A stretch of DNA of 64,000 nucleotides from an uncultured Planctomycetota bacterium (GCA_964493415.1 CAZBND010000005.1:39076-103075), one strand, 5' to 3'. Counted from the first letter of the stretch, positions 20,306 to 54,204 are shown. The notes: generated by a model not told the origin, from the sequence alone. A program made the numbers and translations.

Positions 20306-20377
20306 ATGTCCCCCTCCCTTCAAACCTGAAATCCCTTAGCGGCCGGAATCCGACAACACTGCGCGCAACGTCAGCAA

Positions 20378-27020: not shown

Positions 27021-27036
27021 CCTGCCGGAGACACGA

Positions 27037-27624
27037 ATGGCCTTGACCGATAGACAGCGAGAGATTCTGGATTTTATCACGGCATACGGTGCGGAGAACG
27101 GCTTCGCGCCCACTGTCCGAGAGGTCGCTGCGGCTTTCGGATACCGATCACCGAAGGCTGCGCACGATCATATGAGGGCCCTGGAGCGAAAGGGGGCCGT
27201 TCGGCGGACGCGCGGCATTGCGAGAGGGCTGGAGTTGCGCGACCGGCAGCCGGCCGGCGTACCCGTGCTGGGGGTGGCTCCAGCCGGGCGGCCACTCCTC
27301 GCCGAGGAGGTCCCCGGAGACATGCTCCCCTCGCCTCTCGGTTTCGGTAACGGCGGAAAGCTCTTCGCGGTGAAGGTCGTCGGTGACAGCATGGAGCCTT
27401 TACTCAGCTCCGGCGATCACGCGGTCATCAGAGCCGAACAGACCGCACAACCCGGGGAGATGGTGGCCGCACGTGTCGAGGGCGAGGTGACGCTGAAGCG
27501 TCTCGCGCGGCGCAAGAATAGGCTGGTGTTGAAGCCCGAGAATCCGTCCTACCCCGTGATTCCCGTCACCCGCGACACCCGGATCATCGGCAAGGTCGTG
27601 GGAATGTACAGGCGCTTCGAGTGA
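27037..27624 (+). CDS. lexA: LexA repressor (S24 peptidase), copy 1
   Basis: N-terminal winged HTH (LTDRQREILDFITAY..NGFAPTVREVA). C-terminal S24 domain (VKVVGDSMEPLL...GEVTLKRL). Ala-Gly cleavage-site context is present. Confidence 0.9.
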   Translation: MALTDRQREILDFITAYGAENGFAPTVREVAAAFGYRSPKAAHDHMRALERKGAVRRTRGIARGLELRDRQPAGVPVLGVAPAGRPLLAEEVPGDMLPSPLGFGNGGKLFAVKVVGDSMEPLLSSGDHAVIRAEQTAQPGEMVAARVEGEVTLKRLARRKNRLVLKPENPSYPVIPVTRDTRIIGKVVGMYRRFE

Positions 27625-28202
27625 GGTCGACGGTGGCCGCCGGGTTCATGCTTGTCGAAACCGAAGGCGCAAGTGCGGAGGTCTCTTCGCGCCTTGCCGC
27701 GCGGCTGGCTGCCGGCGACGACCGCGTGTTCTACCTTGACGGGGAAAACGGATTCCGCGTCTATGCAGCCGCAGAAGAGGCGGAAGCGCAAGGCACGCCC
27801 GCCTTGGATGCGCTGGAGAGAATCCAGGTAGCGCGGGCGTTCACGTGCTTCCAGATGGTGGAGCTTCTGCGCAACGCGGCACGCAAACTTGCCGCAGAAG
27901 ACATAGCCATCCTTGCGGGCCCATGCACCGCGTTCGCCGACGAGAACGTTACAGACCGCGAGGTCAGCTTTTTTCTCGGAAAGGCTCTGGACTCGGCGAA
28001 GCAGCTCTCTTCTCGGACGACCTTGACCTTCCAATCGGGAGAAGACTTAGGCCGCAGACCCTGGCTTCTCTCGCGGCTTCGCGCAGCCGCTGCTGCCTGC
28101 GTCGTCCTTCCGCAGACGGCAAACGTGGGCGAGCTGCTGAGAAAACTGAACAAACGGAGGATTCTCAAGTGGGGCGCACCGCACCCTCTTTCAGCCGAGT
28201 GA
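27621..28202 (+). CDS. Hypothetical protein co-translated with lexA (SulA/ImuA-like by position only)
   Basis: GTG start overlaps the lexA stop (GTGA). 193 aa. No motif recognised. Annotation is by synteny only. Confidence 0.5.
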   Translation: MRSTVAAGFMLVETEGASAEVSSRLAARLAAGDDRVFYLDGENGFRVYAAAEEAEAQGTPALDALERIQVARAFTCFQMVELLRNAARKLAAEDIAILAGPCTAFADENVTDREVSFFLGKALDSAKQLSSRTTLTFQSGEDLGRRPWLLSRLRAAAAACVVLPQTANVGELLRKLNKRRILKWGAPHPLSAE

Positions 28203-28261
28203 TTGATGCAGAGGCCGAACGATGGAGAAAATTCCGCCGCGCCCTGCGCAAGGAGGACCAG

Positions 28262-28420
28262 ATGTTGTTCGACCGCATCTTCCACAGAGCGAGGCGCAAC
28301 GTCCAGGCATGGGCCTACGCCGCGATGCCTCATCCCTTCGAAGCGCTGGTCATGAGTGTGCTGCTGGATCAGGAGAGAGAACTTCGCGAGCTTCGAACAC
28401 GCAGTCAGGCGACCACGTGA
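28262..28420 (+). CDS. Small ORF (52 aa; or 73 aa from GTG 28199), in an alternative frame, coupled to the polymerase gene
   Basis: AAGGAGG lies 5 nt upstream of ATG 28262. Product MLFDRIFHRARRNVQAWAYAAMPHPFEALVMSVLLDQERELRELR is helix-rich and not low-complexity. Its TGA overlaps the polymerase GTG start (GTGA). Confidence 0.45.
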   Translation: MLFDRIFHRARRNVQAWAYAAMPHPFEALVMSVLLDQERELRELRTRSQATT

Positions 28421-40160: not shown

Positions 40161-40547
40161 TCAAAGCTTCCCAATGAATCCTTCGTCCGGCTCGAATCCG
40201 ACAACCGAGCCTTCCGGCCCGTACCTCAGCACGAATCTCCCCAAGCCAGGCAGGAAAGCCTCACCCTTGCGGCGGAGAATCGCCGCGATCTTGTCAGGCA
40301 CCGCTTCCATGACTTTCTTGATCACTTCTTGCGAGACATGGCTCGGACTACCATTCCCGCTCTCAGACGCGGCGCGAAGCCGTTCCAACTCCTCTTCAAT
40401 TGATTCTCGCAGAGCCCGTTCCTTGCCGCGCGTGAGCTGCTCGGCCTCCATGCGCTCGCGCAGAGTGGTGACCTCTGATTTCAGCGCAAGAATCCGGTCG
40501 ATTGCAACTTTGACCTTTGCAGGGTCAATTCGTTCCTGCTCAGCCAC
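40161..40547 (-). CDS. Hypothetical coiled-coil protein
   Basis: ORF with a charged heptad-rich N-terminus. The C-terminus is FLPGLGRFVLRYGPEG. Confidence 0.4.
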   Translation of the reverse strand: MAEQERIDPAKVKVAIDRILALKSEVTTLRERMEAEQLTRGKERALRESIEEELERLRAASESGNGSPSHVSQEVIKKVMEAVPDKIAAILRRKGEAFLPGLGRFVLRYGPEGSVVGFEPDEGFIGKL

Positions 40548-40556
40548 CTCTCCACC

Positions 40557-40895
40557 CTAAGAAAGGGCCTCCATGATCTCGTCGAAAGCCTCGCGGGCTT
40601 CCTGTACGCTGTTGGCAAGCTCTTCCTTCGCGCCCACAGCTTCCTCGGCGGCGGCCTTCGATTCCGCCAATTGTTTAGACAGATCCTCGATTCGCTCTGA
40701 AGCCTCCTCCAGACGCCCTTTCAACTCCTCCCTTTCCTGCTCCAGCTCTTTCACGCGCCCCCTGAGCCGGGTCGCAGCGTCCAGCAGTCGCTGCTTCTGC
40801 CCGACCATCTCCCGCAATTTCCCAATGCTTTCCTCCAAGGCTTCCGCCGTGAGATTCCTCCCGCCAACGTTGTCGCTCATCGTCTTCTCCTCCAC
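40557..40895 (-). CDS. Hypothetical coiled-coil protein (E/K/R-rich)
   Basis: ORF adjacent to and co-directional with the previous one. Confidence 0.4.
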   Translation of the reverse strand: MEEKTMSDNVGGRNLTAEALEESIGKLREMVGQKQRLLDAATRLRGRVKELEQEREELKGRLEEASERIEDLSKQLAESKAAAEEAVGAKEELANSVQEAREAFDEIMEALS

Positions 40896-41701: not shown

Positions 41702-42733
41702 ATGATGGGCGCAGTTATCGTCGTGGATGCCTTCTGGGGTGACTCGGGGAAGGGAAAGATAGCCGCCCACCTGGCAAGACGGCTCGGCGTGACCTATAGC
41801 GCCAGGGCGGGAACGGGCACCAACGCCGGGCACAGCGTTTACATGGAGAACGGCAAGCTGCTCAAACTGAACCAGCTCCCTGCCGCACTGGTGCAAAAGG
41901 ACTCCCAGGTTCGCGTGGGCAGCGGGGTAGCGGTCGATCCCGAGATATTCCTGCGCGAGCTCGAGGAGTACGAATCGGATTTCGATCTCAAGGGCCGCAC
42001 CAAAGTCGATTACCGCTGTCCCGTCATAACTCCCGAGTTCAGGAAGGCGGAAGCCGAGGACAACGGCCTGGCGCATAAGATAGGTTCCACCAAGAGCGGA
42101 ACGGGGTTCGCCCTCTCGCAGTTCGTCCTCCGAAAGGCAAAGCAGGCGAAAGACATGCCGGAGCTTGAGGGGTTCACGACCGACGTCGCAGCCGAAATGA
42201 ACGAGGCCTGCGATCGAGGCGAGACTGTACTCATCGAAAGCAGCCAGGGGACGTGGCTCTCTCTCGCTCTTACTCCCGACTATCCCTACTGCACTTCGGA
42301 CAACTGCACGGCAGCCGCCAGCGCCGACGATGTGGGACTTAACTGGAAGCACATTGAAGAGGTTGTGATGCTCGTAAAGGCGGTGCCGAGCCGGGTCGGC
42401 GAAGGACCTCTACCTTTCGAGATATCAAAGGAGGAGATAGAGGATCGAGGAATAGCAGAGTACGGCGTCACCACCGGGCGGCCGAGGAGAAAGGCGAGCC
42501 AGATATCGTGGCCTCACCTCCGATACTCGGTAATGTTAAACGGCCCCACGCAGATAGCGCTCACATTCTGCGACCACCTCGACCCCGACGTGGTTGGAAT
42601 CCGGGATCAGGGCAAGCTCACAAGGAAAGTCATGAGTCTTGTGGAGCGCATCGAGGACGAGTGCGGCGTTCCGGTCACCCTGGTGGAAACAGGCAAGACC
42701 CTTGACTGCATAGTCAAACTCGACCGCCGCTAG
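41702..42733 (+). CDS. purA: Adenylosuccinate synthetase, short (archaeal-type, 343 aa) form
   Basis: The P-loop VVDAFWGDSGKGKIAAHLA matches the PurA QWGDEGKGK motif. Its length matches the short archaeal clade. Confidence 0.7.
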   Translation: MMGAVIVVDAFWGDSGKGKIAAHLARRLGVTYSARAGTGTNAGHSVYMENGKLLKLNQLPAALVQKDSQVRVGSGVAVDPEIFLRELEEYESDFDLKGRTKVDYRCPVITPEFRKAEAEDNGLAHKIGSTKSGTGFALSQFVLRKAKQAKDMPELEGFTTDVAAEMNEACDRGETVLIESSQGTWLSLALTPDYPYCTSDNCTAAASADDVGLNWKHIEEVVMLVKAVPSRVGEGPLPFEISKEEIEDRGIAEYGVTTGRPRRKASQISWPHLRYSVMLNGPTQIALTFCDHLDPDVVGIRDQGKLTRKVMSLVERIEDECGVPVTLVETGKTLDCIVKLDRR

Positions 42734-42736
42734 CCC

Positions 42737-43795
42737 CTACACTTCGCCAAGCCTGTTGCGTATCAGAGTCGCTCGGGCCAAATCCCTCTTTTCCTCTTCG
42801 AGCTTCTTGCCCTCCAGCTTCTGAAGGTGAGCGGGCTGGGTGAGAATGAACAGCTCGTTGAGGCTGTTAATGTGCACGTCCTTAACGAGGCCGAGGTTTA
42901 CGCCCAGGCGTAACTGCGAAAGATACACCATCGCCTCCTGAGAGGAGATCGTCCTGGCGCTCCTGAGCATGCCGTACGCGCGCCACACCCTGTCCTCTAC
43001 GGCGGTGCGGCCGTGCTCCAGCAGGTATTCCCGGGCATTGCGCTCGAACTTTATCAACTGAGGGATCACGCTCTTCAACGACTGGATGATTTCCTCCTCG
43101 GATTTGCCCAGCGATACCTGGTTGGATAGCTGGTAGAGATCGCTGGACGCCTCGGTCCCCTCCCCGTACATCCCCCTGACCGCAAGATTCAGCTTCGCCA
43201 TGGCGGCGAAGACTTTTTTCATCTGTTTTGTCATAACCAGGCCGGGCAAATGGAGCATCACGGACGCTCGCATCCCCGTGCCCACATTGGTCGGGCACGC
43301 TGTCAGGTACCCCAGTTTCGGTGAGAATGCGTAACGAATCCGTTCCTCGAGGAGATTATCGGACCGATTCGCAAGCTCCCAGCACTCGTCCAGCTCGAAG
43401 CCGGAATGGATAACCTGAAGTCGAACGTGGTCCTCTTCGTTCACCATCACGCTGGTCCGCTCGGTTTTTCCGACGGCTACGCCGCGTTTCCCCTTGCCCT
43501 CGGCCAACTCACGGCTTATAAGCTGTCGCTCCTGGAGGTACTGCTTCTCCAGCTCGCCCGCTTGGTCGATGTCTATGTAACGCAGATCGGGTTCGAGACC
43601 GGCTCCAAGAATCCCTTGCTCCAGGAACTTGGCTAGAGCCGCCTGCTGTTCCGGCTTCATGCGGGCGGCAAAAGGGAAATCGGCCACGTTTCGCGCCAGG
43701 CGAATCCGGCTCGACAGCACGATGTCCGCCTCGCTTCCCGAGCCTCTAAGCCATTCGGCTCCGTTGCCGCCCGCCTCACTCGCCGCCACTGCCAA
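42737..43795 (-). CDS. mcsB: Protein-arginine kinase McsB
   Basis: DIVLSSRIRLARNVADFPF, MVNEEDHVRLQ, YLTACPTNVGTGMRASVMLHLPGL, RGMYGEGTEA and ILTQPAHLQ are near-identical to McsB blocks. Confidence 0.9.
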   Translation of the reverse strand: MAVAASEAGGNGAEWLRGSGSEADIVLSSRIRLARNVADFPFAARMKPEQQAALAKFLEQGILGAGLEPDLRYIDIDQAGELEKQYLQERQLISRELAEGKGKRGVAVGKTERTSVMVNEEDHVRLQVIHSGFELDECWELANRSDNLLEERIRYAFSPKLGYLTACPTNVGTGMRASVMLHLPGLVMTKQMKKVFAAMAKLNLAVRGMYGEGTEASSDLYQLSNQVSLGKSEEEIIQSLKSVIPQLIKFERNAREYLLEHGRTAVEDRVWRAYGMLRSARTISSQEAMVYLSQLRLGVNLGLVKDVHINSLNELFILTQPAHLQKLEGKKLEEEKRDLARATLIRNRLGEV

Positions 43796-44288
43796 TCTCC
43801 TTTTCGAGGAGGGATATCTTGTCGCGAAGCTCCGCAGCCTCCTCGTAGTGCTCTTCCGATACCGCGTCCTGAAGGCTCCTGCGCAACTTTATCAGCTCGC
43901 TCAGCCGCGCGGCGGAAGTTCCCGCCTGCGCAGGAGTTTTTCCCGTGTGCTGCGTCGAATGGTGAATCTGCTCGATGATCGGCATAAGCCCCTTCTTGAA
44001 AACCTCGTAGTCATTGGGGCATCCCAGCCTACCCTTGCTCTTGAACTGCCGGAACGTTATTCCGCACCGGGGACATTTGAGCGCAGCCAGCTCCTCGTCG
44101 ATCTCCTGACCCTTCGTTCCTATGAGCCCGCTCAGCACCTCCCCGATATCGATTTTCGGCGCGGAGCTTATCCCCTTGCCGCTGGCGCACTGCTCGCAGA
44201 AGTGATGCTCCTTCTTCTCTCCCACCAGATTGGTAATGTGCACCGTCGCGAGTCGCTTCTTGCATATCTCACAAATCTTGTTGGCCAT
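43776..44288 (-). CDS. mcsA: McsA (zinc-finger plus UVR-domain activator of McsB)
   Basis: Two CxxC pairs (CEICKKR...CEQC; CPRCG...CPNDY). C-terminal UVR motif EEHYEEAAELRDKISLLEKE. Confidence 0.85.
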   Translation of the reverse strand: MANKICEICKKRLATVHITNLVGEKKEHHFCEQCASGKGISSAPKIDIGEVLSGLIGTKGQEIDEELAALKCPRCGITFRQFKSKGRLGCPNDYEVFKKGLMPIIEQIHHSTQHTGKTPAQAGTSAARLSELIKLRRSLQDAVSEEHYEEAAELRDKISLLEKEIGSGGE

Positions 44289-44323
44289 TCCTCACACCTT
44301 TCAGCCGAAAGCGGGTCCCGCCG

Positions 44324-45118
44324 TTAGCCCAGCTTGCCGGCCCGCGAGGCCGTTATGTAGTTAAGGCAGAACTCGTCTTTTCCTAAAAGCGCCTCCATCG
44401 CAATCACCGTCTGCATAACGCTGCGCTCCAATGCATCCATTATAGCCGCATCGAGGCCTGCTCTCATCATCAATGCGAGAAACGTCGCGTTCAACAGCGC
44501 CCGGTTAGGCATCCCGAAGGAGACGTTGCTCAAGCCGCAAACAACATGTATTCCGGGATGAGCCCTTTTGGCGGCCCGAACCGTGTCCAACACCGCTACC
44601 ACGTCGTCCGGCACGGTGCACACCGGCTGGATGAGCGGGTCCACGTAGATATGTTCGACCGGGATCGAAAGCCGCGTCGCTGCTGAGACTGTTCTCTCGA
44701 GTATCTCAAGTCGCCTCTGGACCCCTGTGGGTACACCCTCGTCGTCCATTAGGAGGGCGACGACGGGGGCGGAATTGCCGGCGGCGAGGGCAAGAGTCGG
44801 TTCAAGCCGTGACTCCTCCGCGGTCGCAGAATTGACGAGAGGGGTCTTCTCAGACGCGGCGACGGCTTCCTCCAGCGCCTTCAGGTTCGCGCTGTCCACG
44901 CACAAGGGCAAGTCAACCGCTTTCTGAACGGTCTGGACAAGCCAGACGAGATTCTCCGCTTCTCTCTTCGGATCGCCGCCGGCGTTGACGTCTATCATAT
45001 GAGCGCCCGCGGCGGCCTGTCGCTTCGCCACGCCGCTTATGAACTCCGCATCGCGCGCCTCAATCGCTCGCCTGATTCGGCTCCTCGTCGCGTTAATCCT
45101 CTCCCCGATAACAAGCAT
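44324..45118 (-). CDS. Pterin-binding methyltransferase, methyltetrahydrofolate:corrinoid protein methyltransferase (AcsE/MtrH-like)
   Basis: MLVIGERINAT start. Blocks LCVDSANL, LVNSAT, YVDPLIQP and GLSNVSFG match the MeTr/AcsE pterin-binding TIM barrel. Its length (264 aa) matches AcsE. Confidence 0.6.
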   Translation of the reverse strand: MLVIGERINATRSRIRRAIEARDAEFISGVAKRQAAAGAHMIDVNAGGDPKREAENLVWLVQTVQKAVDLPLCVDSANLKALEEAVAASEKTPLVNSATAEESRLEPTLALAAGNSAPVVALLMDDEGVPTGVQRRLEILERTVSAATRLSIPVEHIYVDPLIQPVCTVPDDVVAVLDTVRAAKRAHPGIHVVCGLSNVSFGMPNRALLNATFLALMMRAGLDAAIMDALERSVMQTVIAMEALLGKDEFCLNYITASRAGKLG

Positions 45119-45121
45119 TCC

Positions 45122-46492
45122 TCACTCCGGTTTGCTCTCGTACCTCTTTTCCCATCTCAGCAAGTCCATCACCGCCGCGAGAGTCGATTTTCCCGACCTT
45201 ATCTCCTCCATGATCCGGTCTTCCTTTTCGAGGCATTCCATCCCTCGATTTGCAAGCTCAACAGCGTCCCCTTTCGGTATGATCATCACTCCGTCGTCGT
45301 CACCTACGACCCAGTCGCCCGGGAATACCCTCACGCCGGAGATCAGCAGAGGGACATTCAGCTCTCCCATACCCCTGGGCTCTCCCGCGTGTGATGTCAC
45401 CAGCCGCGCGAACGCCGGAAACCCCAGCTTCCGGACTGTGTGCGTATCCCGAATCGCTCCGTTTATCACCACGCCCGATATTTTGCGCTCGATTGCGCTG
45501 AGCGTCGCCATCTCGCCCCAGATTGCCGGCGCGACCCCTCCGGCATCGATCACTATCACGTCTCCTTCGCCGGCTTCGTCGATCGCCTCGACCGGTTTGG
45601 CCCAATCGCCGGGATAGGTCCGAACGGTAAAGGCCTTGCCGACCACACGCGCTCCTTGGACGACCGGCTTTATGCCCTCCAGACACGGCGTACGATGCAT
45701 GCCGTCGGATATGTTGGCCGTTGAGACCCGGGAGAAAACTTCCCTGATCTCCTCTCCCGTCACCCGCTTGAAAAGCACCGTCGCTCGCTTCTCTCCGGTT
45801 GCCATGGCCTGCTTGATGGCCCTGGTCGCCTCGGCCGCATCCCTGGCTTTACATATGGCCCCGCCGACGATGACGATATCCGCTCCCGCGGCGACCGCAT
45901 CTGCGGCGCTCTCGGAGTTCATGCCGCCTGCCACCGCGATCGGTATAGTCACCTTCTGTCGAATCTCCCGCAGGACGTCAAAGGGGTCCCCGCCGAGCAT
46001 CTGTTCGTCAATCGCGGTATGCACGCCCACGTGGCCGGCCCCCCACTCCTGCGCCTGCTGTGCCCTCATCACGGGGTCTGAGACCGCCAAGAGGTCCACC
46101 CCTACCTGTATGCCGTAGTTCGCTCCGGCGCGGATGCACTCCTTCACGGTGGAGTCGGTCGCGGCGCCCATGACGGTGGCGTGATGCGCCCCGGCCTTCG
46201 CCGCCGCTTCCACCTCGATTCGCCCCGCATCCATGACTTTAAGGTCCGCGACCAGCGGCACCTTGGGGAAACGCGAACGCAGCTCCCGCACGCACTTCAT
46301 CCCCTCGCTCTTTATCAGCGGCGTGCCCGCCTCCAGCCAGTCCGCGCCGCCGGCCACTGCTTCCTCCGCGGCCCTCAAGGCTCGGTGCAAATCCACATAA
46401 TCCAGTGCAACTTGAAGAATCGGAGCCATGGCCAAATCAACCCCGTACGCTATGACGGAGAATACCTTGCGCAACTGCCGGGCGTCTCCCAT
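45122..46492 (-). CDS. Fusion protein: N-terminal 3-hexulose-6-phosphate synthase-like (OMPDC/KGPDC family), C-terminal RraA-like (RNase E regulator / 4-hydroxy-2-oxoglutarate aldolase-like)
   Basis: ILQVALD...ADLKVMD...VAGGM... is the HPS pattern. The C-terminal half carries RraA-family GD/GA-rich blocks (VVINGAIRD, GDWVVGDDDGV). Confidence 0.6.
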   Translation of the reverse strand: MGDARQLRKVFSVIAYGVDLAMAPILQVALDYVDLHRALRAAEEAVAGGADWLEAGTPLIKSEGMKCVRELRSRFPKVPLVADLKVMDAGRIEVEAAAKAGAHHATVMGAATDSTVKECIRAGANYGIQVGVDLLAVSDPVMRAQQAQEWGAGHVGVHTAIDEQMLGGDPFDVLREIRQKVTIPIAVAGGMNSESAADAVAAGADIVIVGGAICKARDAAEATRAIKQAMATGEKRATVLFKRVTGEEIREVFSRVSTANISDGMHRTPCLEGIKPVVQGARVVGKAFTVRTYPGDWAKPVEAIDEAGEGDVIVIDAGGVAPAIWGEMATLSAIERKISGVVINGAIRDTHTVRKLGFPAFARLVTSHAGEPRGMGELNVPLLISGVRVFPGDWVVGDDDGVMIIPKGDAVELANRGMECLEKEDRIMEEIRSGKSTLAAVMDLLRWEKRYESKPE

Positions 46493-46824
46493 ACGGTGAC
46501 GGCCCGCACGGCAATCGCGGGAGGGAGTTCCGCAGCAATTCGCTCGCAGACGATTCCGGCGATGTTTTCGGTCGTCGGATTCAACACCTCAAATTGCTCC
46601 AGCTCGTTCAGGTTCGCGTGGTCCCACTCGGCGATCGCGCGAGAAAGCAGCGCCCGCGCGTCGTGGAAATCCATCAGCATCCCCTGCCCATTCAAAGCAT
46701 CTCCGCCGAGAGTCAGCCGCACCAGCCAGTTGTGTCCGTGCAGCTTCTCGCACTTGCCTTTGTAGTCCCGCAGGCTGTGCGCCGCCGAAAAATGATCCTC
46801 AACTTCCAGCTCAAACATGCCCAT
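46450..46824 (-). CDS. 6-pyruvoyl-tetrahydropterin synthase / QueD-family protein
   Basis: CEKLHGHNW zinc/catalytic motif. 124 aa. Overlaps the start of the downstream fusion gene by about 40 nt. Confidence 0.75.
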   Translation of the reverse strand: MGMFELEVEDHFSAAHSLRDYKGKCEKLHGHNWLVRLTLGGDALNGQGMLMDFHDARALLSRAIAEWDHANLNELEQFEVLNPTTENIAGIVCERIAAELPPAIAVRAVTVWETPGSCARYSPS

Positions 46825-46990
46825 GCGCCCCCTCTCATTCCATTATCTCAGCGACCCCGTCGCGCTGTCAAGCTCGCACGGCTGCGGCGCATCAGCCTCT
46901 GCCCGCCAAACGTCCTTGACACCGTCGGACGGCACGGATATAACTCCACAGATCGGCGTTGCGGAGCGCCGGTGCCGGGAGCGCTCCTCG

Positions 46991-48487
46991 ATGTATCATC
47001 CTTCCTTTGAAGAATTCAGAAAGCTTGCGCGCACCGAGGGGACGGTTCTAGTCCATCGCCAGCTCCTCGCCGATACCCTTACGCCCGTCTCGGCGTTTCT
47101 CCGTTTGAGCGAAGGGGCGCGCTACGCGTTCCTCCTGGAAAGTGCTTCAGGCGGCGAGACTGTGGGGCGATTCTCGTTCGTCGGCGCCGATCCCCTCCAG
47201 GTTTTCGCTTCACGAGGCAACGACGTCCAATTGCTCCACTCCTCCGGAGAGAAGGAGGAATGGACCGGAGAACCTTTCGCCCAACTGAAGCAGGTCCTGT
47301 CGAGATTCTCCTGCAAGGAGCCCGAGCATCCTGACATGTTCACCGGCGGCGCTGTAGGGTACATATCTTACGATGCGGTTCGCCATATAGAGGACCTCCC
47401 AAATCTTAAGCCCGACAAACTGGGGCTGCCGGAGCTGTATTTTGGCATATATGACACCTTGGTCGTCTTCGACCATCTTCACAAAGTGGTACGGGTCTCG
47501 TGCATGGTCCGCACCGACGAAGCTTCCGCCGCGTCGGCGTACGAACTGGCCTTGGACAAGATCGACAGCGCCGTCGAGCGTCTGCGGCACCCCATCGCTC
47601 TGGTCAGCGACGACGTCCAGGTAAGCGGGCCATTGGACCTTGCATACTCGTCCAACTTCCGCAAAGTGGATTTCGAGGATGCCGTCCGCAGGGCGAAGGA
47701 ATACATCCTGGCCGGAGACGTGTTCCAGGTCGTCCCGTCCCAGCGGCTGGCGGCCACGACCTCCGTGGACGGCCTGGCCATCTATCGCACGCTCCGCGTC
47801 GTCAATCCATCCCCTTACATGTTCTACCTGCGGATGCCCGACGTCTCACTTATAGGTGCGTCGCCCGAGGTGATGGTTAAGGTGGAGAACGGCACCGTCA
47901 CGCTCAGGCCCATCGCCGGAACCCGTAAGCGTGGCGAGACGATCGCCGAAGACAAGGCTCTGGAAAAGGAGCTGCTCGCGGACGAAAAGGAGCGCGCCGA
48001 GCATATCATGCTCGTAGACCTTGCGCGAAACGACGTGGGAAAGGTCTGCGACTTCGCCTCAGTCAAGCTCGACGAATTCATGACGGTGGAGCGATACTCC
48101 CACGTAATGCACCTCACGTCCAACGTGTCGGGCAAGCTCCGTCGGGAATGCGACGCTTTCGACGCGCTGCGAGCTTCCATCCCCGCCGGTACCGTCACGG
48201 GTGCGCCTAAAGTCCGCGCCATGGAGATCATCGAGGAGCTGGAGCCCGAGAAGCGGGGGCCGTATGCGGGTGCTGTCGGAATGCTCGGCTTCGGCGGCGA
48301 CCTCAATACGTGCATCACCATCAGGACAATAACACTTGTCGGCGACATTGCTTACGTACAGGCAGGTGCTGGGATAGTCGCCGACTCCGTTCCCGAAAGG
48401 GAGTACGAGGAGACTCTTAACAAGGCTAAGGCCCTGCTGAAGGCCATTGAAATAGCGGAGCGTCAACTCGGCGCCATAAACGTCTAG
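46991..48487 (+). CDS. Anthranilate synthase component I family (TrpE/PabB)
   Basis: LLESASGGETVGRFSFVG, chorismate-binding C-terminal blocks (GAVGYISYD, PKVRAMEIIEELE, GAGIVADS). Promoter TTGACA-17-TATAAC and a leader hairpin lie upstream. Confidence 0.8.
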   Translation: MYHPSFEEFRKLARTEGTVLVHRQLLADTLTPVSAFLRLSEGARYAFLLESASGGETVGRFSFVGADPLQVFASRGNDVQLLHSSGEKEEWTGEPFAQLKQVLSRFSCKEPEHPDMFTGGAVGYISYDAVRHIEDLPNLKPDKLGLPELYFGIYDTLVVFDHLHKVVRVSCMVRTDEASAASAYELALDKIDSAVERLRHPIALVSDDVQVSGPLDLAYSSNFRKVDFEDAVRRAKEYILAGDVFQVVPSQRLAATTSVDGLAIYRTLRVVNPSPYMFYLRMPDVSLIGASPEVMVKVENGTVTLRPIAGTRKRGETIAEDKALEKELLADEKERAEHIMLVDLARNDVGKVCDFASVKLDEFMTVERYSHVMHLTSNVSGKLRRECDAFDALRASIPAGTVTGAPKVRAMEIIEELEPEKRGPYAGAVGMLGFGGDLNTCITIRTITLVGDIAYVQAGAGIVADSVPEREYEETLNKAKALLKAIEIAERQLGAINV

Positions 48488-48529: not shown

Positions 48530-49429
48530 ATGAGCGCCCAGACCATCGACGGGGAAGCGACCGCAGCGAAGATCAAGGAGCAGCTCGTGCCCGACATCGA
48601 CGGGTTGAAAGCCAAGGGCAAGCCCCCACATCTCGTCGCCCTTATGGTCGGCGACAATCCCGCCACGAGAATCTACTCCAACAGTCAGAAGAAAAGCTGC
48701 GAGGAACTGGGCATCGAGTACACGCTGGAGCAGCTCCCCGACGACACAACGGGCCAAGGGCTGGAAAAGCGCATCAAGGAGCTTAATCGCGACGGGTCCG
48801 CCAACGGCATCCTGCTTCAGATGCCCCTTCCGCAGGGAGTCGACGCGCGCGAGCTGCAGGCGATGATCGCGCCCAACAAAGACGTCGAAGGGATGAATCC
48901 CGCAAACATGGGGATGGTAGTGTACGGAAGGCCGCGGCTCGCCCCGTGTACCGCAATGGCGGCGGTGGAGCTCATCAAGGCCACAGGCGTGGAACTCGAA
49001 GGGAAAGAGGTCACCGTCGTTGGCCACAGCGAGATCGTCGGAAAGCCGGTGAGCCTCCTCCTGCTCGACCAATTCTGCACCACTACCGTTTGCCACATCG
49101 CCACGCGGGACCTTGCCCACCATACGAAGAATGCAGAAATACTCGTTGTCGCCGTGGGTAAAGCCGGGCTCATCAAGGGGCAGATGATCAGACCCGGAGC
49201 AATCGTGATCGACGTAGGCATTAACCGTATCACCCTTAAGGACGAAAAGGGCAATCCAGTGCTTACGAGCAAAGGCAAGCCCAAGAAGATTACCGTCGGC
49301 GATGTGGTGTTCGACGAGGCTAAGGAGATTGCATCCCACATTACGCCGGTCCCGGGAGGCGTCGGGCCCGTGACCGTCGCGATCCTTCTCCGGAACACCG
49401 TGGAAGCCGCGAAGATGCAGAGCGAATAA
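48530..49429 (+). CDS. folD: Bifunctional methylene-THF dehydrogenase/methenyl-THF cyclohydrolase
   Basis: Carries the FolD blocks LVGDNPATRIY, NGILLQMPLP and VVGHSEIVGKPV. Confidence 0.9.
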   Translation: MSAQTIDGEATAAKIKEQLVPDIDGLKAKGKPPHLVALMVGDNPATRIYSNSQKKSCEELGIEYTLEQLPDDTTGQGLEKRIKELNRDGSANGILLQMPLPQGVDARELQAMIAPNKDVEGMNPANMGMVVYGRPRLAPCTAMAAVELIKATGVELEGKEVTVVGHSEIVGKPVSLLLLDQFCTTTVCHIATRDLAHHTKNAEILVVAVGKAGLIKGQMIRPGAIVIDVGINRITLKDEKGNPVLTSKGKPKKITVGDVVFDEAKEIASHITPVPGGVGPVTVAILLRNTVEAAKMQSE

Positions 49430-49471
49430 GGGTGCCGCAGTTGTGTTAGAATAGATGTAAGGAGGAGCCCG

Positions 49472-49717
49472 ATGGAGCATACGGTAACACTGCCGCAGCT
49501 TGGAGAAGACGCAGGGGACGAAGCGACCGTGTCGTTCTTTCACTTCGAGGAAGGCGACGAGGTGAAGGAGGGAGACGCCCTGGTCGAGATGGTCACCGAC
49601 AAGGCCGCATTTGACGTTCCCTCGCCCGTGAGCGGAGTCCTGAAGAAGATTCTCGCCGATGAAGACCAAGTCGTGCCGGTGGGCGGCCCGTTGGCGGTGA
49701 TCGAAACCAAGGAATAA
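49472..49717 (+). CDS. Stand-alone lipoyl-binding domain protein (81 aa)
   Basis: EMVTDKA is the lipoyl-lysine motif within a biotinyl/lipoyl hybrid-barrel pattern. Confidence 0.7.
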   Translation: MEHTVTLPQLGEDAGDEATVSFFHFEEGDEVKEGDALVEMVTDKAAFDVPSPVSGVLKKILADEDQVVPVGGPLAVIETKE

Positions 49718-49738
49718 CCTGCACACAGGAGCAGCGCC

Positions 49739-50419
49739 GTGATCATACTCAAGCAGAAAGACTTCGACGAGATCATCGAAGCCCTCTCCGGCGAGCGGAA
49801 AGTTTTCATCGCCGGCTGCACCGACTGCGCCACCACATGCAAAGTTGGAGGGGAAGAAGAACTCGAAAAAATGAAGAAGAAGCTCGAAGGCGCCGGGATT
49901 GAAGTGACCGGAACCTGCGTCTTCGACACGGCGTGCCTTTCCGGAGAGGTGCGCCAGAAAGGAAAGGATAACCAGGAGGCCCTCAAGAACGCCGACAGCA
50001 TTCTGGTGCTCGCGTGCGGAACCGGCGTGCAGACGATAGGGGACCAGCTTGGGTACAGGGTTCACCCCGGCCTGGAGTCTCTTTTCATCGGCGAAGTCGT
50101 GCGACTGGGCAAGTACGAGGAGAAATGCCGGGCCTGCGGAGATTGCGTCCTCGAATACACCGAAGGCATATGCCCCGTCACCAGATGTTCGAAGGGGCTT
50201 CTAAACGGCCCCTGCGGAGGCTACAGCAAGGACGGGAAGTGCGAGGTGGACCCCGAAAAAGACTGCGCTTGGCTACTCATATACGAAAGGCTCAAGGAAC
50301 GTGGCCGCTTGGACAAGATGAAGAAGATGCGGGAGCCGAAGGACTACTCGACAATGTTGTCGCCCAGGCGTCTGGTCTGGGAGAAGCCGAAGGTCAAGGT
50401 CGCAGGAGGGAAGAAGTGA
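49739..50419 (+). CDS. metV: MetV-like Cys-rich small subunit associated with acetogen-type MTHFR
   Basis: About 18 Cys arranged in CxxC-type clusters. Lies immediately upstream of, and overlapping, metF. Confidence 0.6.
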   Translation: MIILKQKDFDEIIEALSGERKVFIAGCTDCATTCKVGGEEELEKMKKKLEGAGIEVTGTCVFDTACLSGEVRQKGKDNQEALKNADSILVLACGTGVQTIGDQLGYRVHPGLESLFIGEVVRLGKYEEKCRACGDCVLEYTEGICPVTRCSKGLLNGPCGGYSKDGKCEVDPEKDCAWLLIYERLKERGRLDKMKKMREPKDYSTMLSPRRLVWEKPKVKVAGGKK

Positions 50420-51291
50420 AACTGCAACAGGCGCTTGAATCCGGGGACTTCGTCATCACGGGAGAGATCGGGCCCCCCAAAGGCACCGACCTCGATCACG
50501 CCCTCGCGGAGGCCAAGGAATATTACACCGACAACGTCGTGGCCGTGAATGTGACCGACCTGCAGAGCTCGGTACTGAGGCTCGGCTCCATGGCGGTCTG
50601 CCACAAGCTCCTGGACATCGGAATAGAGCCGGTTTATCAGATGACCTGCCGCGACCGCAACCGGCTTGCCCTCCAGTCCGACCTCCTCAGCGCGTCTGTC
50701 TTGGGCATCGAGAACGTTCTCGCACTGACCGGCGACCATGTCCCTCTCGGAGATCACCCGCAGGCCAAGCCCGTGTTCGACATCGACTCCGTTCAACTGT
50801 TGCAGGTAATCGATACCCTTCAGCAAGGAAAGGACATGGCCGGCAACGAGCTGGCAGGAGTCCCGAAGTTCTATCCGGGGGCCGTGGTCAGCCCGTGCGC
50901 GGAGCCGCTGGAGCCGCAGTTGTTCAAAATGGAGAAGAAGATTCAGGCGGGAGCGAAGTTCTTCCAGACGCAAGCGGTCTACGACCGCGCAGCGTTCGAG
51001 AATTTCATGGATAAGGTTCGCGGCTTCGGCGTGCCGGTGCTTGTGGGGATCGTCCTCCTGAAGTCGGCAGGCATGGCGAAGTTCATGAACGAAAACGTCG
51101 CAGGCGTTTCAGTGCCCGATGAACTGATAAAGGAGCTCGCCTCCGTCGACAAGAAAGACCGAAAGAAAAAGAGCGTCGAGATCGCCGCAAGGCTCCTACG
51201 CGAAATGAAGGACATGGCCCAGGGGGCTCACATCATGCCCCTCGGATGGGATTCGGAAGTCCCGAAAGTCATAGCAGCAGCCACGGCATAA
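50416..51291 (+). CDS. metF: 5,10-methylenetetrahydrofolate reductase (clostridial/acetogen type)
   Basis: GTG 50416 preceded by AGGAGGG. The MTHFR TIM-barrel blocks FVITGEIGPPKG and CRDRNRLALQSDLL are present. The ORF-track start at 50014 is rejected as an antisense-like low-complexity extension. Confidence 0.8.
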   Translation: MKLQQALESGDFVITGEIGPPKGTDLDHALAEAKEYYTDNVVAVNVTDLQSSVLRLGSMAVCHKLLDIGIEPVYQMTCRDRNRLALQSDLLSASVLGIENVLALTGDHVPLGDHPQAKPVFDIDSVQLLQVIDTLQQGKDMAGNELAGVPKFYPGAVVSPCAEPLEPQLFKMEKKIQAGAKFFQTQAVYDRAAFENFMDKVRGFGVPVLVGIVLLKSAGMAKFMNENVAGVSVPDELIKELASVDKKDRKKKSVEIAARLLREMKDMAQGAHIMPLGWDSEVPKVIAAATA

Positions 51292-51302
51292 TGAGGGATA
51301 AG

Positions 51303-52523
51303 ATGGCGAAGAAGAAACTGCGCCGGGTCGTCTTGGCATACTCAGGGGGACTGGACACCTCGGTCATCCTCCCCTGGCTGAAAGAGACATACGGGTGCGA
51401 GGTGATTGCGTATATCGCCGACGTTGGACAGGGAGAGGAGCTCGATTCCGCGAAAAAGCGGGCTGAAGCCTGCGGAGCAGCCAAGGTGTGCGTCGAAGAC
51501 CTCCGCGAGGAGTTCGTGCAGGACTACGTTTTCCCGGCCTTGAAGGCCGGAGCGGTGTACGAAGGCAGCTATCTACTCGGCACCTCGCTCGCCCGATACA
51601 TCATCGCCGGCAAGCAAGTAGATGTCGCTCACAGGGAGGATGCGGATGCCGTCTGCCACGGCGCTACCGGTAAAGGCAACGATCAGGTTCGGTTCGAGTT
51701 GACCTACATGGCGTTGGATCCGAACCTTGTCGTCATCGCGCCGTGGAAAGATGAAAACTGGAAAATCTCCTCGCGCGAGGACGCCATAGCTTACGCGGCG
51801 CAGCACGAAATCCCCCTTGATGTCTCGACCAAGGATATCTACAGCCGCGACCGGAACATATGGCATCTCAGCCATGAGGGTGCCGACCTCGAATCCCCCG
51901 CCAACGAGCCAACTTCGAACCTCTTCAAGATTTCTAAACCTATCGAGCGGACTCCCGCCAAGCCCAAATACGTCGAGATAGATTTCGAGAAGGGAACACC
52001 CGTCGGGCTCGACGGACGGCCGATGAGCGGCTGCGACCTGGTGAACGAGCTTAACTCCGTGGCGGGCAATCACGGGGTCGGGCAAGTGGACCTGGTCGAG
52101 AATCGCGTCACCGGCATGAAGTCGCGGGGCGTCTACGAGACTCCCGGCGGCACGGTTCTCCACTTAGCTCACAAGAGGCTCGAATCGATCACACTCGATA
52201 AGGCAACAGCGCACTACAAGGAGCTCGTGGCCGTAAAGTACGCCGATCTGGTCTATTCCGGTCTGTGGTTCACTCCCCTCCGCCGAGCGCTCGACGCGTT
52301 CGTCAACTCCACCCAGGAATTCGTGACCGGCACCGTGAAGGTCAAGCTTTTCAAGGGGAATTGCACGCCCGCATCGGTCAAGTCCCCCTACTCACTCTAT
52401 CTCGAGGACTTGGCGAGCTTCGAAATGGGCGACTATGAACCGCAGGATGCCAAAGGCTTTATTTCGCTTTACGGTCTGCCTCTCAAAGTCGTGGGAGCGA
52501 TTCAGAAGCAGAGACCCTCGTAG
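51303..52523 (+). CDS. argG: Argininosuccinate synthase
   Basis: VVLAYSGGLDTSV is the PP-loop. Carries the ArgG blocks ADVGQGEE and GNDQVRFE. ATG 51303 follows GAGGGA. Confidence 0.9.
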   Translation: MAKKKLRRVVLAYSGGLDTSVILPWLKETYGCEVIAYIADVGQGEELDSAKKRAEACGAAKVCVEDLREEFVQDYVFPALKAGAVYEGSYLLGTSLARYIIAGKQVDVAHREDADAVCHGATGKGNDQVRFELTYMALDPNLVVIAPWKDENWKISSREDAIAYAAQHEIPLDVSTKDIYSRDRNIWHLSHEGADLESPANEPTSNLFKISKPIERTPAKPKYVEIDFEKGTPVGLDGRPMSGCDLVNELNSVAGNHGVGQVDLVENRVTGMKSRGVYETPGGTVLHLAHKRLESITLDKATAHYKELVAVKYADLVYSGLWFTPLRRALDAFVNSTQEFVTGTVKVKLFKGNCTPASVKSPYSLYLEDLASFEMGDYEPQDAKGFISLYGLPLKVVGAIQKQRPS

Positions 52524-53480: not shown

Positions 53481-54074
53481 CTACCTGTAACTGCGAAGCA
53501 CGCCGACGACGACCCCTTGGATATCAACCCGGTCTGGAAACATCGGCGGGAGCTTGGGATTCGCCGGTTGCAGCCGAATCCTTCCTCCTTCCCTATAGAA
53601 CTTCTTCAGTGTCACATCGCTCCCGTCAACGAGGGCCACCACGGTCTCCCCATTCCCGGCGACGTTGCGCCGTTCCACTATCACGTAGTCACCGTCCTCT
53701 ATGTGTTCGTCGATCATGGAGTCCCCCCGCACCCGCAGGACGAAGTGATCGTCCGGCCGAGGAAGCATCGCCGCAAGGTCCACCGTCTCGTCTTCCTGAA
53801 CCGCTTCGATCGGCCTGCCCGCCGCAATGTAGCCCAGGAACTTGAGCGACAGCCCGCCTTCCCCCTGGCTCGACCTCAGGACTTTGATCGAGCGAGGCTG
53901 ATAACGCTCGCAGGCGACGTACTGCTTTCGTTCCAAGGCACGCCGGTACTGCAGCGCAGTTACCTCACAAACACGCATGTGCTCGGCAATCTCCCTCAAC
54001 GTCGGAGCGTATCCGTTGCTTGCCGTGTACTTTTCGATGAACTCAAGCACCTTCAGCTGTTTCGGTGTCAACAT
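53481..54074 (-). CDS. lexA: LexA repressor, copy 2
   Basis: LTPKQLKVLEFIEKYTASNGYAPTLREIA is the HTH. RVRGDSMIDEHI...VTLKKF is the S24 domain. Start at the internal Met follows GGAGGAA. Promoter TTGATC-17-TATTAT lies on the minus strand. Confidence 0.85.
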   Translation of the reverse strand: MLTPKQLKVLEFIEKYTASNGYAPTLREIAEHMRVCEVTALQYRRALERKQYVACERYQPRSIKVLRSSQGEGGLSLKFLGYIAAGRPIEAVQEDETVDLAAMLPRPDDHFVLRVRGDSMIDEHIEDGDYVIVERRNVAGNGETVVALVDGSDVTLKKFYREGGRIRLQPANPKLPPMFPDRVDIQGVVVGVLRSYR

Positions 54075-54204
54075 CTCATTCCTCCAGCCCGGAAGTATAA
54101 TAGACCTCGAGGGCGCGGAGATCAATCACCGAACCTCGCCGCTTGACTGAAAATGCCGACGGCATTACAGTATGCTCAGTGGCACACGCGCCAAGGGGGG
54201 ACCA

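Follow-up and report, generated by a model that had tools for sequence, protein, structure and literature searches.

The closest described counterpart of the locus considered here is the class III heat-shock operon of Firmicutes, ctsR-mcsA-mcsB-clpC(-radA-disA), known from Bacillus subtilis, which encodes the protein-arginine kinase McsB and its activator McsA. Outside the Gram-positives, the homologues mentioned are confined to Proteobacteria, with rare cases among archaea, and the activity of such McsB homologues has never been determined (PMC11046695). Other known systems bear on the genes that accompany mcsAB below: the RuMP pair hxlA-hxlB, which encodes HPS (3-hexulose-6-phosphate synthase) and PHI (6-phospho-3-hexuloisomerase), together with the archaeal Fae-HPS and HPS-PHI fusions, and the pterin-binding methyltransferases represented by Moorella MeTr/AcsE, the Desulfitobacterium O-demethylase methyltransferase (4o0q) and the pterin module of MetH. 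Here we describe an mcsA/mcsB pair that forms the 3' end of a run headed by folate/one-carbon (C1) enzymes in an uncultured member of the Planctomycetota. Coordinates refer to the window, that is, the whole 64-kb stretch of DNA analysed.

The locus and its neighbours

Open reading frame (ORF) calls, Pfam and NCBIfam identify five consecutive genes on the minus strand, in the order PTPS/QueD-like, HPS::RraA, methyltransferase homologue (MeTr), McsA and McsB, all of them where an earlier note on this DNA had placed them. The features of the locus are:

41702..42733, plus strand: purA, a short archaeal-type adenylosuccinate synthetase; downstream boundary of the cluster
42737..43789, minus strand: McsB protein-arginine kinase, kinase domain and C-terminal dimerisation domain; the ORF reaches a TTG at 43795
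43776..44288, minus strand: McsA, predicted arginine kinase activator, with a pair of putative zinc knuckles and, at its C terminus, a UVR/coiled-coil region
44324..45118, minus strand: methyl-tetrahydrofolate:corrinoid methyltransferase homologue, pterin-binding TIM barrel (PF00809), 264 aa
44439..44467, minus strand: weak candidate internal promoter (ATGAGA, 17 nt, TATAAT; 10/12 matches) in the 3' end of MeTr, about 150 nt upstream of mcsA
45122..46429, minus strand: 3-hexulose-6-phosphate synthase (N-terminal) fused to an RraA-like/HMG-CHA-aldolase-like domain (C-terminal); the longest ORF extends to 46492
46450..46824, minus strand: PTPS-family enzyme (COG0720) with a CEKLHGH motif; PF01242 at 7.9e-38
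46842..46871, minus strand: sigma-70-like promoter ahead of the five-gene run (TTGACA, 18-nt spacer, TG-extended GATAAT; 11/12 matches)
46916..48487, plus strand: trpE with its own conserved promoter, ATG at 46991; head of trpE-folD-lipoyl protein-metV-metF-argG
46916-46921 and 46939-46944, plus strand: conserved trpE promoter, TTGACA and TATAAC with a 17-nt spacer
48530..52523, plus strand: context genes folD, an 81-aa lipoyl/biotinyl-domain protein, metV (MTHFR C-terminal-like), metF and argG

Gaps within the run are at most 35 nt, inside the 40 nt given earlier; that between MeTr and mcsA is 35 nt (17–28 nt in relatives) and that between HPS::RraA and MeTr is 3 nt. The overlap of mcsA and mcsB, previously put at about 20 nt, is 20 nt from the TTG start and 14 nt from the GTG at 43789; the GTG is the likely start, since it fits both a GGAGA ribosome-binding site and 350-aa homologues. 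Taken at its longest, the HPS::RraA ORF reaches 43 nt into the PTPS gene, but every homologue aligns from residue 22 onward, so that translation probably begins at M22 (46429), leaving a gap of 20 nt.

Like its B. subtilis counterpart, the pair is adjacent and overlapping. The window differs from the Firmicute operon in lacking ctsR and a CtsR box, in having PTPS, HPS::RraA and MeTr in the 5' position, in the absence of an adjacent clpC and in its Gram-negative-type planctomycete host. No homologue of either CtsR or ClpC was detected within the 64 kb, consistent with the initial observation that neither gene is adjacent. On the downstream side purA, first described as divergent, is instead convergent on mcsB, with stop codons 3 nt apart, and it neighbours mcsB in three relatives as well (L001–L003). 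The divergent neighbour of the cluster is trpE, upstream of the PTPS gene, and the order folD-lipoyl protein-metV-metF-argG that follows it is shared with L001 and L003. Cluster and context genes together constitute a folate/C1 neighbourhood of about 10 kb. The proposed pterin/C1 grouping is thus genuine, given this divergent gene set and the linkage of HPS::RraA to MeTr, FchA, core-MetE and PabB/PabC-like genes in unrelated contexts.

Identities of the five proteins

McsB matches PF00217 over residues 70–253 (6e-68), scores 450.8 bits against the ‘protein arginine kinase’ model NF002194 (cutoff 385), and aligns with the solved structures 8wtb_A, 6tv6 and 6fh1 (316 bits) over residues 12–347 of 350, including the dimerisation domain. 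This C-terminal domain is the site of the pArg-binding pocket, and PF27454 (McsB_C) is precomputed on close homologues. The sequence VNEEDH and the catalytic Cys in CPTNVGTG, the NEEDH and Cys motifs being those defined for McsB (PMC11046695), are both present and invariant in 18 relatives; NEEDH, Cys and dimerisation domain are the same as in the B. subtilis operon. McsB is predicted, from sequence, to phosphorylate protein arginines. Because PF00217 is common to phosphagen kinases, and with argG and purA nearby, one could imagine a small-molecule guanidino kinase tied to the neighbouring metabolism; we consider this very improbable, since the protein lacks the phosphagen-kinase N-terminal domain, aligns end to end with McsB structures, passes the arginine kinase cutoff, and is always paired with McsA, ClpC then following in many lineages.

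McsA aligns over its full length with B. subtilis McsA (8wtb_B; residues 4–167, 105 bits), while its score against the equivalog model NF053706 (4.8e-38, 130.8 bits) falls under the cutoff of 210. The features checked were four CxxC motifs in two zinc domains, a coiled-coil/UVR region and a position immediately upstream of mcsB. Two putative zinc knuckles and the coiled-coil/UVR region correspond to those of B. subtilis, the UVR motif is recognized by Pfam, and the adjacency is present. Zinc ligands in McsA have been assigned to C81/C84/C99/C102 (PMC11046695); in the window the fourth ligand, in Z2, is Asp (C-P-N-D) rather than the Cys of CxxC found in the Firmicute system, and CxxD in place of CxxC is common to most planctomycete McsAs.

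The gene at the head of the run had been called QueD-like, and it does pass the QueD model TIGR03367 (96.7 bits, cutoff 89.25), but it is better read as a PTPS-I/III hybrid. Within COG0720, CxxxHGH marks QueD (PTPS-I), ExxHGH marks PTPS-III and CExxHGH the hybrid (PMC5041015), and the window protein, with C-E-K-L-H-G-H, has the hybrid form. So do 25 of the 28 readable cluster-linked PTPS genes, the other three carrying ExxHGH. Its predicted role is to bypass FolB in folate synthesis, to serve as QueD, or both.

The next protein is the fusion it was first taken for. It matches NF005442 (PRK07028, ‘bifunctional HPS/ribonuclease regulator’) across model positions 2–429 of 430 (2e-170; 567 bits, slightly short of the 593 cutoff) and has the same domain order (Pfam OMPdecase/HUMPS followed by RraA-like). 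The HPS domain passes the HxlA model TIGR03128 (206.3 bits, cutoff 200) and retains the OMPDC suprafamily metal/catalytic motif, with E33, D62-x-K64-x-x-D67 and H137 invariant, in keeping with hxlA and the archaeal fusions. KGPDC was considered and rejected, its models scoring far under their cutoffs (91.9 against 250 bits and 66 against 294 bits). In the RraA-like domain (PF03737, 2.2e-44) the query ‘AIRDT’ aligns with ‘GVRDT’ of 3noj; R327 and D328, an Arg-Asp dyad which we take to be the catalytic one of the family's aldolase/oxaloacetate decarboxylase branch, are invariant. The fusion departs from the RuMP and archaeal systems in its RraA-like/HMG-CHA-aldolase-like partner domain and, in Planctomycetota, in having PTPS as its partner gene. 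A PHI homologue was found neither in the 64-kb window nor beside any mcsAB-linked fusion, whereas PHI genes adjoin the fusion in sister clades (about 21 loci in one such clade).

The methyltransferase, described earlier as AcsE-like, is indeed a pterin-binding methyltransferase homologue. It has the whole TIM barrel, passes NF005719 (PRK07535; 321.5 bits, cutoff 259), and has 4o0q (207.6 bits) and then Moorella MeTr 2e7f (172.8 bits) as its best solved relatives. A true AcsE identity was rejected: the AcsE model NF040758 gives 149.2 bits against a cutoff of 370, and no CODH/ACS or corrinoid protein gene was found among the window ORFs scanned. On these model scores it is a generic methyl-THF:corrinoid methyltransferase, not the AcsE of CODH/ACS.

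Recurrence across Planctomycetota

Across a comparison set of 167 related loci, including a Bacillota control (L079), PTPS, HPS::RraA and MeTr each appear again, in other deep lineages, directly upstream of mcsAB, and forms with PTPS only, HPS only or MeTr only are found. Relatives whose McsB is 87% and 73% identical retain the five-gene block intact, and some metagenomic loci (L089, L106) carry PTPS-HPS::RraA-MeTr-mcsA-mcsB-clpC, that is, the window's five genes plus ClpC. In L004, HPS::RraA-mcsA-mcsB stands in completely different flanks. Such retention, complete in these relatives and piecemeal in lineages much further away, is far from what chance would give. That the block has outlasted the shuffling of its flanks in several deep lineages could in itself be a sign of selection for a functional link, one that the account favoured below does not require.

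A PTPS-HPS::RraA-mcsA-mcsB-clpC cluster with radA next occurs in anammox-type lineages (Kuenenia L015, Jettenia L010, Scalindua L009/L063, Avalokitesvara L007); no description of it was found in the literature searched. Its order mcsA-mcsB-clpC-radA is identical to that of Firmicutes, and clpC lies immediately 3' of mcsB in 13 non-Bacillota genome loci and many metagenome loci. The window shares with the anammox type the PTPS with CExxHGH, the order PTPS, HPS::RraA, McsA, McsB, the short gaps and a sigma-70-like promoter before PTPS. It differs in a MeTr gene, either inserted or retained, that separates HPS::RraA from mcsA (also the case in L089, L106 and L112), and in having lost the clpC-radA continuation, where purA instead converges. 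The suggestion of an unusual use of arginine phosphorylation is not favoured, as retention of clpC, then radA, directly after mcsB in anammox and other deep lineages argues for ordinary McsB-to-ClpC use.

Regulation is another matter. The control L079, in which the order is CtsR-McsA-McsB-ClpC and RadA lies further downstream, was the sole tblastn match to a Pfam-verified CtsR query; the window and the other 166 loci gave none, and CtsR was detected at none of the approximately 95 planctomycete/omnitrophote mcsAB loci examined. Regulation may thus be called unusual relative to Firmicutes, as first proposed, but it is normal for the phylum. Inherited across much of the phylum without CtsR at these loci, the five-gene layout represents a known system in a form typical of this lineage, and no isolated peculiarity. 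Arrangements are nested in the McsB tree in a pattern of stepwise loss (a quick neighbour-joining tree without support values or species-tree reconciliation), and the layout is apparently a phylum-level, ancestral one. Divergent trpE lies beside mcsA or PTPS in 27 of 80 genome loci. In the HPS::RraA tree (likewise quick neighbour-joining without support values) the mcsAB-linked genes form essentially one clade.

Expression and the one-carbon link

In the promoter at 46842..46871 the end of the -10 element is 18 nt from the start codon of PTPS. Both hexamers of this promoter are identical in the window, L001 and L003, while the remaining spacer diverges and contains indels. Among 84 loci, sigma-70-like motifs (at least 10/12) precede the chain's first gene in 44% of cases, against 2% in background; upstream of internal mcsA the figure is 11%, with none reaching 11/12. 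A promoter or terminator separating mcsAB from the upstream genes had been named as the observation that would break up the run. Motif scans found no terminator-like sites beyond chance between the five genes and, as an internal promoter, nothing more convincing than the weak candidate at 44439..44467.

If that candidate were active, mcsAB would be driven from 44467-44439 and the upstream genes would form an independent metabolic operon, adjacent without being co-transcribed. The window, L001, L002 and L003 have the same TATAAT, with its rare ATA codon for Ile, and in L038, L040 and L072, where the PTPS-mcsA or MeTr-mcsA gaps are wider, promoter-like motifs lie 58–96 nt before mcsA. Yet the TATAAT coincides with conserved A-A-I-M-D codons of MeTr, and ATA is used there also in MeTr genes that no mcsA follows. 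L003 does not conserve the -35, L089 and L038 lack the motif, and chance would give about one such match in the region; this, together with the lack of a separating terminator and the short MeTr-mcsA gap, makes separate transcription unlikely.

A functional coupling, in which C1/aldehyde enzymes belong with McsAB(-ClpC) to a single stress module, or the enzymes are regulated by McsB, and selection for co-regulation keeps them together, is a doubtful prospect, less likely again than separate transcription. In one version HPS handles formaldehyde, a reactive electrophile harmful to the side chains of Arg, Lys and Cys, while the zinc-thiolate sites of McsA sense stress and McsB marks damaged proteins for ClpC; in the other, McsB phosphorylates arginines of PTPS, HPS::RraA or MeTr and so regulates them directly. 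The persistence of the block, with both flanks exchanged, in several deep lineages would fit, as would the 4-nt overlap between HPS::RraA stop and mcsA start in L004 and the independent occurrence of each of the three genes as sole upstream partner of mcsA. Most Planctomycetia, however, carry mcsAB without any of the three (trpE directly upstream, 27/80 loci). Most HPS::RraA genes outside the planctomycete clade occur with PHI or YjbQ/core-MetE/PabB and no mcsAB, and two within it (L142, L155) have no mcsAB nearby. The signatures of PTPS and MeTr point to folate biosynthesis and methyl transfer rather than detoxification, and no stress operator was found, neither a CtsR box nor CIRCE being matched upstream of any locus scanned.

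The account that we therefore favour as probable is that the window holds, in slightly eroded form, an ancestral operon of Planctomycetota in which McsAB-ClpC plays its usual role and the C1 link is one of inheritance. In such an operon the PTPS-I/III hybrid, HPS::RraA and the methyl-THF methyltransferase would occupy the 5' slot held by ctsR in Firmicutes; spacing and motif scans suggest that the five genes are most likely co-transcribed from the conserved sigma-70-type promoter at 46871-46842, with mcsB presumably translationally coupled to mcsA. McsA-activated McsB would phosphorylate arginines on damaged or regulatory proteins, and the phosphoarginine-tagged proteins, following the canonical mechanism, would be recognized by ClpC-ClpP encoded elsewhere in the genome. 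Lacking CtsR, expression would lie outside the Firmicute class III heat-shock circuit, and control may be post-translational (through McsA, ClpC and a pArg phosphatase) or exerted by another factor. The upstream enzymes may serve folate and C1 supply, PTPS making the pterin moiety, HPS interconverting hexulose-6-phosphate with ribulose-5-phosphate and formaldehyde, and MeTr moving the methyl group of methyl-THF. What ties the C1 genes to mcsAB would then be inherited operon structure and co-expression, not shared chemistry.

The five-gene run and its kinase pair

An ORF scan read against Pfam and NCBIfam profiles finds five ORFs in one direction at 42737–46824 (− strand), confirming the layout described in the earlier note apart from one orientation error: purA, taken there as divergent, converges on mcsB, and it is trpE, on the opposite side, that diverges. 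The absence of ctsR and clpC beside mcsAB, also claimed there, is borne out, and no homologue of either protein was found within the whole 64-kb window.

Genes of the run, in 5' to 3' order, and the convergent neighbour
46450–46824, − strand: PTPS-family protein (PF01242, 7.9e-38)
45122–46492 (longest ORF), − strand: fusion of HPS and an RraA-like domain (NF005442, 2e-170)
44324–45118, − strand: pterin-binding methyltransferase (MeTr) homologue (NF005719, 321.5 bits; cutoff 259)
43776–44288, − strand: McsA (UVR motif; McsA model, 4.8e-38, below the model's cutoff)
42737–43795 (longest ORF), − strand: McsB (NF002194, 450.8 bits; cutoff 385)
41702–42733, + strand: purA, converging on mcsB, stop codons 3 nt apart

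Translation of the fusion most likely begins at M22 (46429), 20 nt beyond the PTPS gene, since the alignments of all homologues and the models start there. For mcsB the most likely start is a GTG at 43789, which gives a 14-nt overlap with mcsA and a product of 350 aa, the length also found in all close homologues; the alternative, a TTG at 43795, would extend the overlap to 20 nt. By our reading of the DNA, 35 nt separate the methyltransferase stop codon from mcsA, which has a good ribosome-binding site. The spacing of the purA and mcsB stops (42731–42739), against 35–45 nt in relatives, means that the convergent transcripts must overlap, or else each end within the gene it runs into; the scan for terminator-like hairpins gave none at this junction.

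Residues 12–347 of McsB align to the solved Bacillus and Geobacillus McsB structures (316 bits), a span that takes in the NEEDH motif, the catalytic Cys and the dimerisation domain, and McsA aligns over its full length to B. subtilis McsA as seen in the McsAB complex structure. A phosphagen kinase is rejected on domain architecture and on the full-length match to the solved McsB structures. The pair bears the sequence hallmarks of the canonical kinase and, one zinc ligand of McsA apart, of its activator. Because of these hallmarks, and because clpC and radA still follow in sister lineages in the Firmicute order, we infer a canonical function: McsA-activated McsB would phosphorylate arginines and thereby mark proteins for the ClpC–ClpP protease, which would have to be encoded elsewhere in this genome, and the system would be missing CtsR-based transcriptional feedback.

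In B. subtilis McsA, the domain that binds McsB has a four-Cys zinc site (PMC11046695). In the window, as in most planctomycete McsAs, an Asp (C-P-x-D) takes the place of the fourth Cys ligand of this Z2 domain, the CxxC being kept by only a minority among the McsA genes of the related loci L004–L167. Two tandem McsA-like genes stand 5' of mcsB in Gemmataceae and Isosphaeraceae (L006, L013, L016, L020, L033, L066, L069).

Distribution and descent of the layout

The one statement on distribution that we found places homologues beyond Gram-positives in some Proteobacteria and, rarely, archaea, none of them ever assayed (PMC11046695, a 2024 structural paper); our literature searches turned up nothing relevant on McsB in Planctomycetes or anammox bacteria, or on a fusion of HPS and RraA. 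Here the named top matches of McsB and of HPS::RraA were all Planctomycetota, including Brocadiia, Gemmataceae and Thermoguttaceae, and McsA and McsB proved widespread in the phylum, occurring also in a few Omnitrophota-labelled genomes. An exact-sequence look-up gave no entry for the window's McsB in the protein collection.

Other genes of the window fit Planctomycetota as well, namely sulfatases, giant CARDB proteins and a MacB/HlyD/TolC-type exporter. Two paralogues of about 1080 aa with a CARDB domain at the end (1640–4891 and 17090–20323, both −) adjoin sulfatase genes (239–1600, 14514–16952, 20378–21814), and since each lies beside one, this looks like a duplicated module. Elsewhere a LexA homologue (26992–27624, +) is directly followed by a small Rad51/RecA-fold protein (27621–28202) and a family-B DNA polymerase (28222–30597); the stretch (26992–30597, +) has the look of a mutagenesis-type cassette under SOS control, with PolB at its centre in the place of ImuB/DnaE2. 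Another LexA homologue is encoded at 53481–54125 (−).

On contigs at 87% and 73% McsB identity the whole neighbourhood is kept, in the order argG-metF-metV-folD-trpE-five genes-purA-LOG-family gene. Between the TolC-like and LOG-family genes of the window are two small coiled-coil ORFs (128 and 112 aa; 40161–40895, −) without family matches, and ORFs of the same sizes hold this position in the close relatives L002 and L003, L003 being contig CAZUUK010000001.1 of the closest assembly, GCA_964622675.1.

Two surveys, both scored by tblastn with the window's proteins as queries, covered 80 species-representative genome loci centred on McsB and 80 metagenome loci centred on HPS::RraA.

Arrangements around mcsAB in the surveyed loci
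PTPS-HPS::RraA-McsA-McsB-ClpC, with RadA after ClpC: Avalokitesvara, Scalindua, Jettenia, Kuenenia and others
PTPS-HPS::RraA-MeTr-McsA-McsB-ClpC (the window's five genes plus clpC): L089, L106; the L112 contig ends within mcsA
HPS::RraA-McsA-McsB only: L004 (4-nt overlap, unrelated flanks), L032, L039
PTPS-McsA-McsB only: L040, L052, L057, L072, L082
MeTr-McsA-McsB only: L038, L065
Divergent trpE directly upstream: 27 of the 80 genome loci (of mcsA in 25, of PTPS in L072 and L082)
IlvE-McsA-McsB-ClpC: Omnitrophota and some basal lineages, with RadA further downstream in L080, L081, L083

The loci with trpE upstream belong mainly to Pirellulales, Isosphaeraceae and Planctomycetaceae. Genes for a LolD-like ABC ATPase and an IlvE-type aminotransferase come before mcsAB in L058, L067, L070, L071, L076, L077, L080, L081 and L083; in the Omnitrophota-like and basal lineages with this pair, clpC follows mcsB wherever the contig reaches.

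A neighbour-joining tree of the fusion protein places the copies linked to mcsAB in what is essentially a single clade, distinct from those linked to PHI and to YjbQ/core-MetE. The arrangements are nested in the McsB tree, rooted on Bacillota: McsAB-ClpC is basal, followed by the full PTPS-HPS(-MeTr)-McsAB-ClpC forms together with the window clade, then by partial forms, and last by the form of Planctomycetia in which trpE adjoins mcsAB. The simplest reading of these quick trees, which carry no support values, is that one ancestral block was eroded stepwise. On this reading the window keeps all three upstream genes and has lost the clpC-radA continuation, and its layout is a lineage-typical, apparently ancestral variant of a known system. 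The interpretation given in the earlier note is partly supported.

Promoters, operators and CtsR

Just 5' of the PTPS gene lies a candidate promoter (46871–46842, −; TTGACA, 18-nt spacer, (TG)GATAAT), whose hexamers are identical in the window and its close relatives L001 and L003 and whose surrounding spacer has diverged, with indels. The back-to-back trpE promoter (46916–46944, +; TTGACA, 17 nt, TATAAC) is conserved in the same alignment; a reading of trpE as a disguised pabB was rejected, as it passed the trpE model and failed both pabB models. Across the 84 loci scanned, promoter-like motifs (score at least 10/12) occur 5' of the chain's first gene in 44%, against 2% of random segments, and 5' of an internal mcsA in 11%, with none at 11/12. 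Terminator-like hairpins occur no more often than expected by chance; the one match between cluster genes on the coding strand is weak and falls at the PTPS/HPS::RraA junction (46460–46441).

A minor rival would have mcsAB driven from within the methyltransferase gene, where the window clade carries a 10/12 candidate (44467–44439; ATGAGA, 17 nt, TATAAT). However, the −10 of this candidate overlaps codons of a conserved A-A-I-M-D peptide motif, its −35 has changed in L003, and its presence is not correlated with an adjacent mcsA. Taken together, promoter conservation, motif frequencies and chance-level hairpins make co-transcription from the PTPS-proximal promoter the best-supported reading of the sequence.

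CtsR was not found at any of the surveyed Planctomycetota and Omnitrophota mcsAB loci. In the Bacillota control, L079, Pfam identifies the ORF 5' of mcsA as CtsR, which as a tblastn query had no other match in the 167 loci or the window. Searches 5' of the first gene in every locus, with mismatches allowed, found neither the CIRCE nor the CtsR-box consensus, and de novo k-mer enrichment there returned only sigma-70 −35/−10 elements (CTTGACA/CTTGACT, TAGAAT) and no palindromic operator. Rfam and tRNA scans of the window gave no riboswitch or leader near the cluster, their sole match being a tRNA-Leu (11213–11301). Among known systems the locus comes closest to the ctsR-mcsA-mcsB-clpC operon of Firmicutes; it shares the kinase module but lacks both of the operon-defining features tested, ctsR first and clpC next. 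The locus would probably work like the Firmicute system without being a member of that operon type.

The C1 genes and their relation to the kinase

PTPS proteins with CxxxHGH are QueD, those with ExxHGH folate-pathway PTPS-III, and those with CExxHGH hybrids for both (PMC5041015). The window protein, previously called QueD-like, reads C-E-K-L-H-G-H and by this signature is probably better termed a folate/queuosine hybrid; among the 28 readable PTPS genes of such clusters, 25 have CExxHGH and three ExxHGH. The HPS domain of the fusion scores above the HxlA model cutoff and retains the D-x-K-x-x-D motif, and KGPDC was rejected because the NCBIfam cutoffs for its models were not reached. Its RraA-like domain aligns to the HMG/CHA aldolase 3noj, including the Arg-Asp dyad, which we take to be the catalytic residues. 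The closest solved relative of the methyltransferase is a Desulfitobacterium O-demethylase methyltransferase, followed by Moorella MeTr; the protein fails the cutoff of the AcsE-specific NCBIfam model, and the label AcsE-like is dropped.

The grouping of formaldehyde and methyl-pterin enzymes proposed for this locus is real and recurs in settings outside it, for away from mcsAB the fusion gene has two further contexts. One is a separate fusion clade in which a SIS-domain, PHI-like gene always lies before it, the two forming a PHI-HPS::RraA counterpart of the RuMP gene pair (L095, L102–L104, L110, L111, L114, L125, L129, L139–L141, L143, L144, L146, L154, L156–L158, L165, L166). The other, outside Planctomycetota, is the run YjbQ(UPF0047)-HPS::RraA-core-MetE-like-PabB-like-(class IV aminotransferase/PabC-like), with FchA and one or two MeTr homologues nearby (L093, L107, L119, L122, L126, L131, L135, L138, L150; L116, L117, L149, L152, L161). 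The conservation of these runs points to a folate/methionine role for the fusion; the UPF0047/YjbQ partner has also been annotated as thiamine-related. In L142 (5450–6464), a high-GC member of the planctomycete-type fusion clade, the place of mcsAB after the fusion gene is taken by genes that, on their translations alone, were judged ThiS-like and ThiG-like.

A formaldehyde-to-methyl-THF chain is plausible and would fit the window's folD-metV-metF genes: HPS would release or consume formaldehyde, formaldehyde and THF would yield methylene-THF, MetF/MetV would convert this to methyl-THF, and MeTr would hand the methyl group on. Between folD and metV-metF lies the gene of an 81-aa lipoyl/biotinyl-domain protein (49472–49717, +), a position conserved in L001 and L003; the protein might serve the MetFV reductase as a carrier or in electron transfer.

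Most likely the C1/folate genes act independently of the kinase and still stand upstream of mcsAB through inherited operon structure. We give a small chance to a functional link, in which proteostasis would be tied to aldehyde/C1 stress or the C1 enzymes would be under pArg control; survival of the block while its flanks turn over speaks for it, but most Planctomycetia retain mcsAB alone, and most of the fusion genes found elsewhere lack mcsAB in their surroundings. It seems improbable that, across Planctomycetota including anammox bacteria, pArg-dependent proteolysis is wired to folate/formaldehyde metabolism, with the PTPS-HPS::RraA(-MeTr) genes, rather than being passengers, either co-regulated with McsAB-ClpC or themselves its direct pArg targets, in a CtsR-independent 'carbonyl/C1 stress and proteostasis' operon kept since the base of the phylum. 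If the C1 link is merely historical, the locus makes a useful annotation and evolution note and brings no new mechanism.

To our knowledge, work on the pArg degradation tag has been confined almost wholly to Firmicutes, whose tagging system has its regulation defined by CtsR. The ancestral planctomycete layout would be a Firmicute-like mcsA-mcsB-clpC-radA core behind folate/RuMP enzymes, and the survey draws attention to the HPS::RraA fusion, which is repeatedly partnered with genes of folate, methionine and RuMP metabolism. Together, locus and survey provide concrete targets for asking how a pArg system is controlled without CtsR, with Kuenenia and Scalindua enrichments and genetically tractable Planctomycetia as the candidates.
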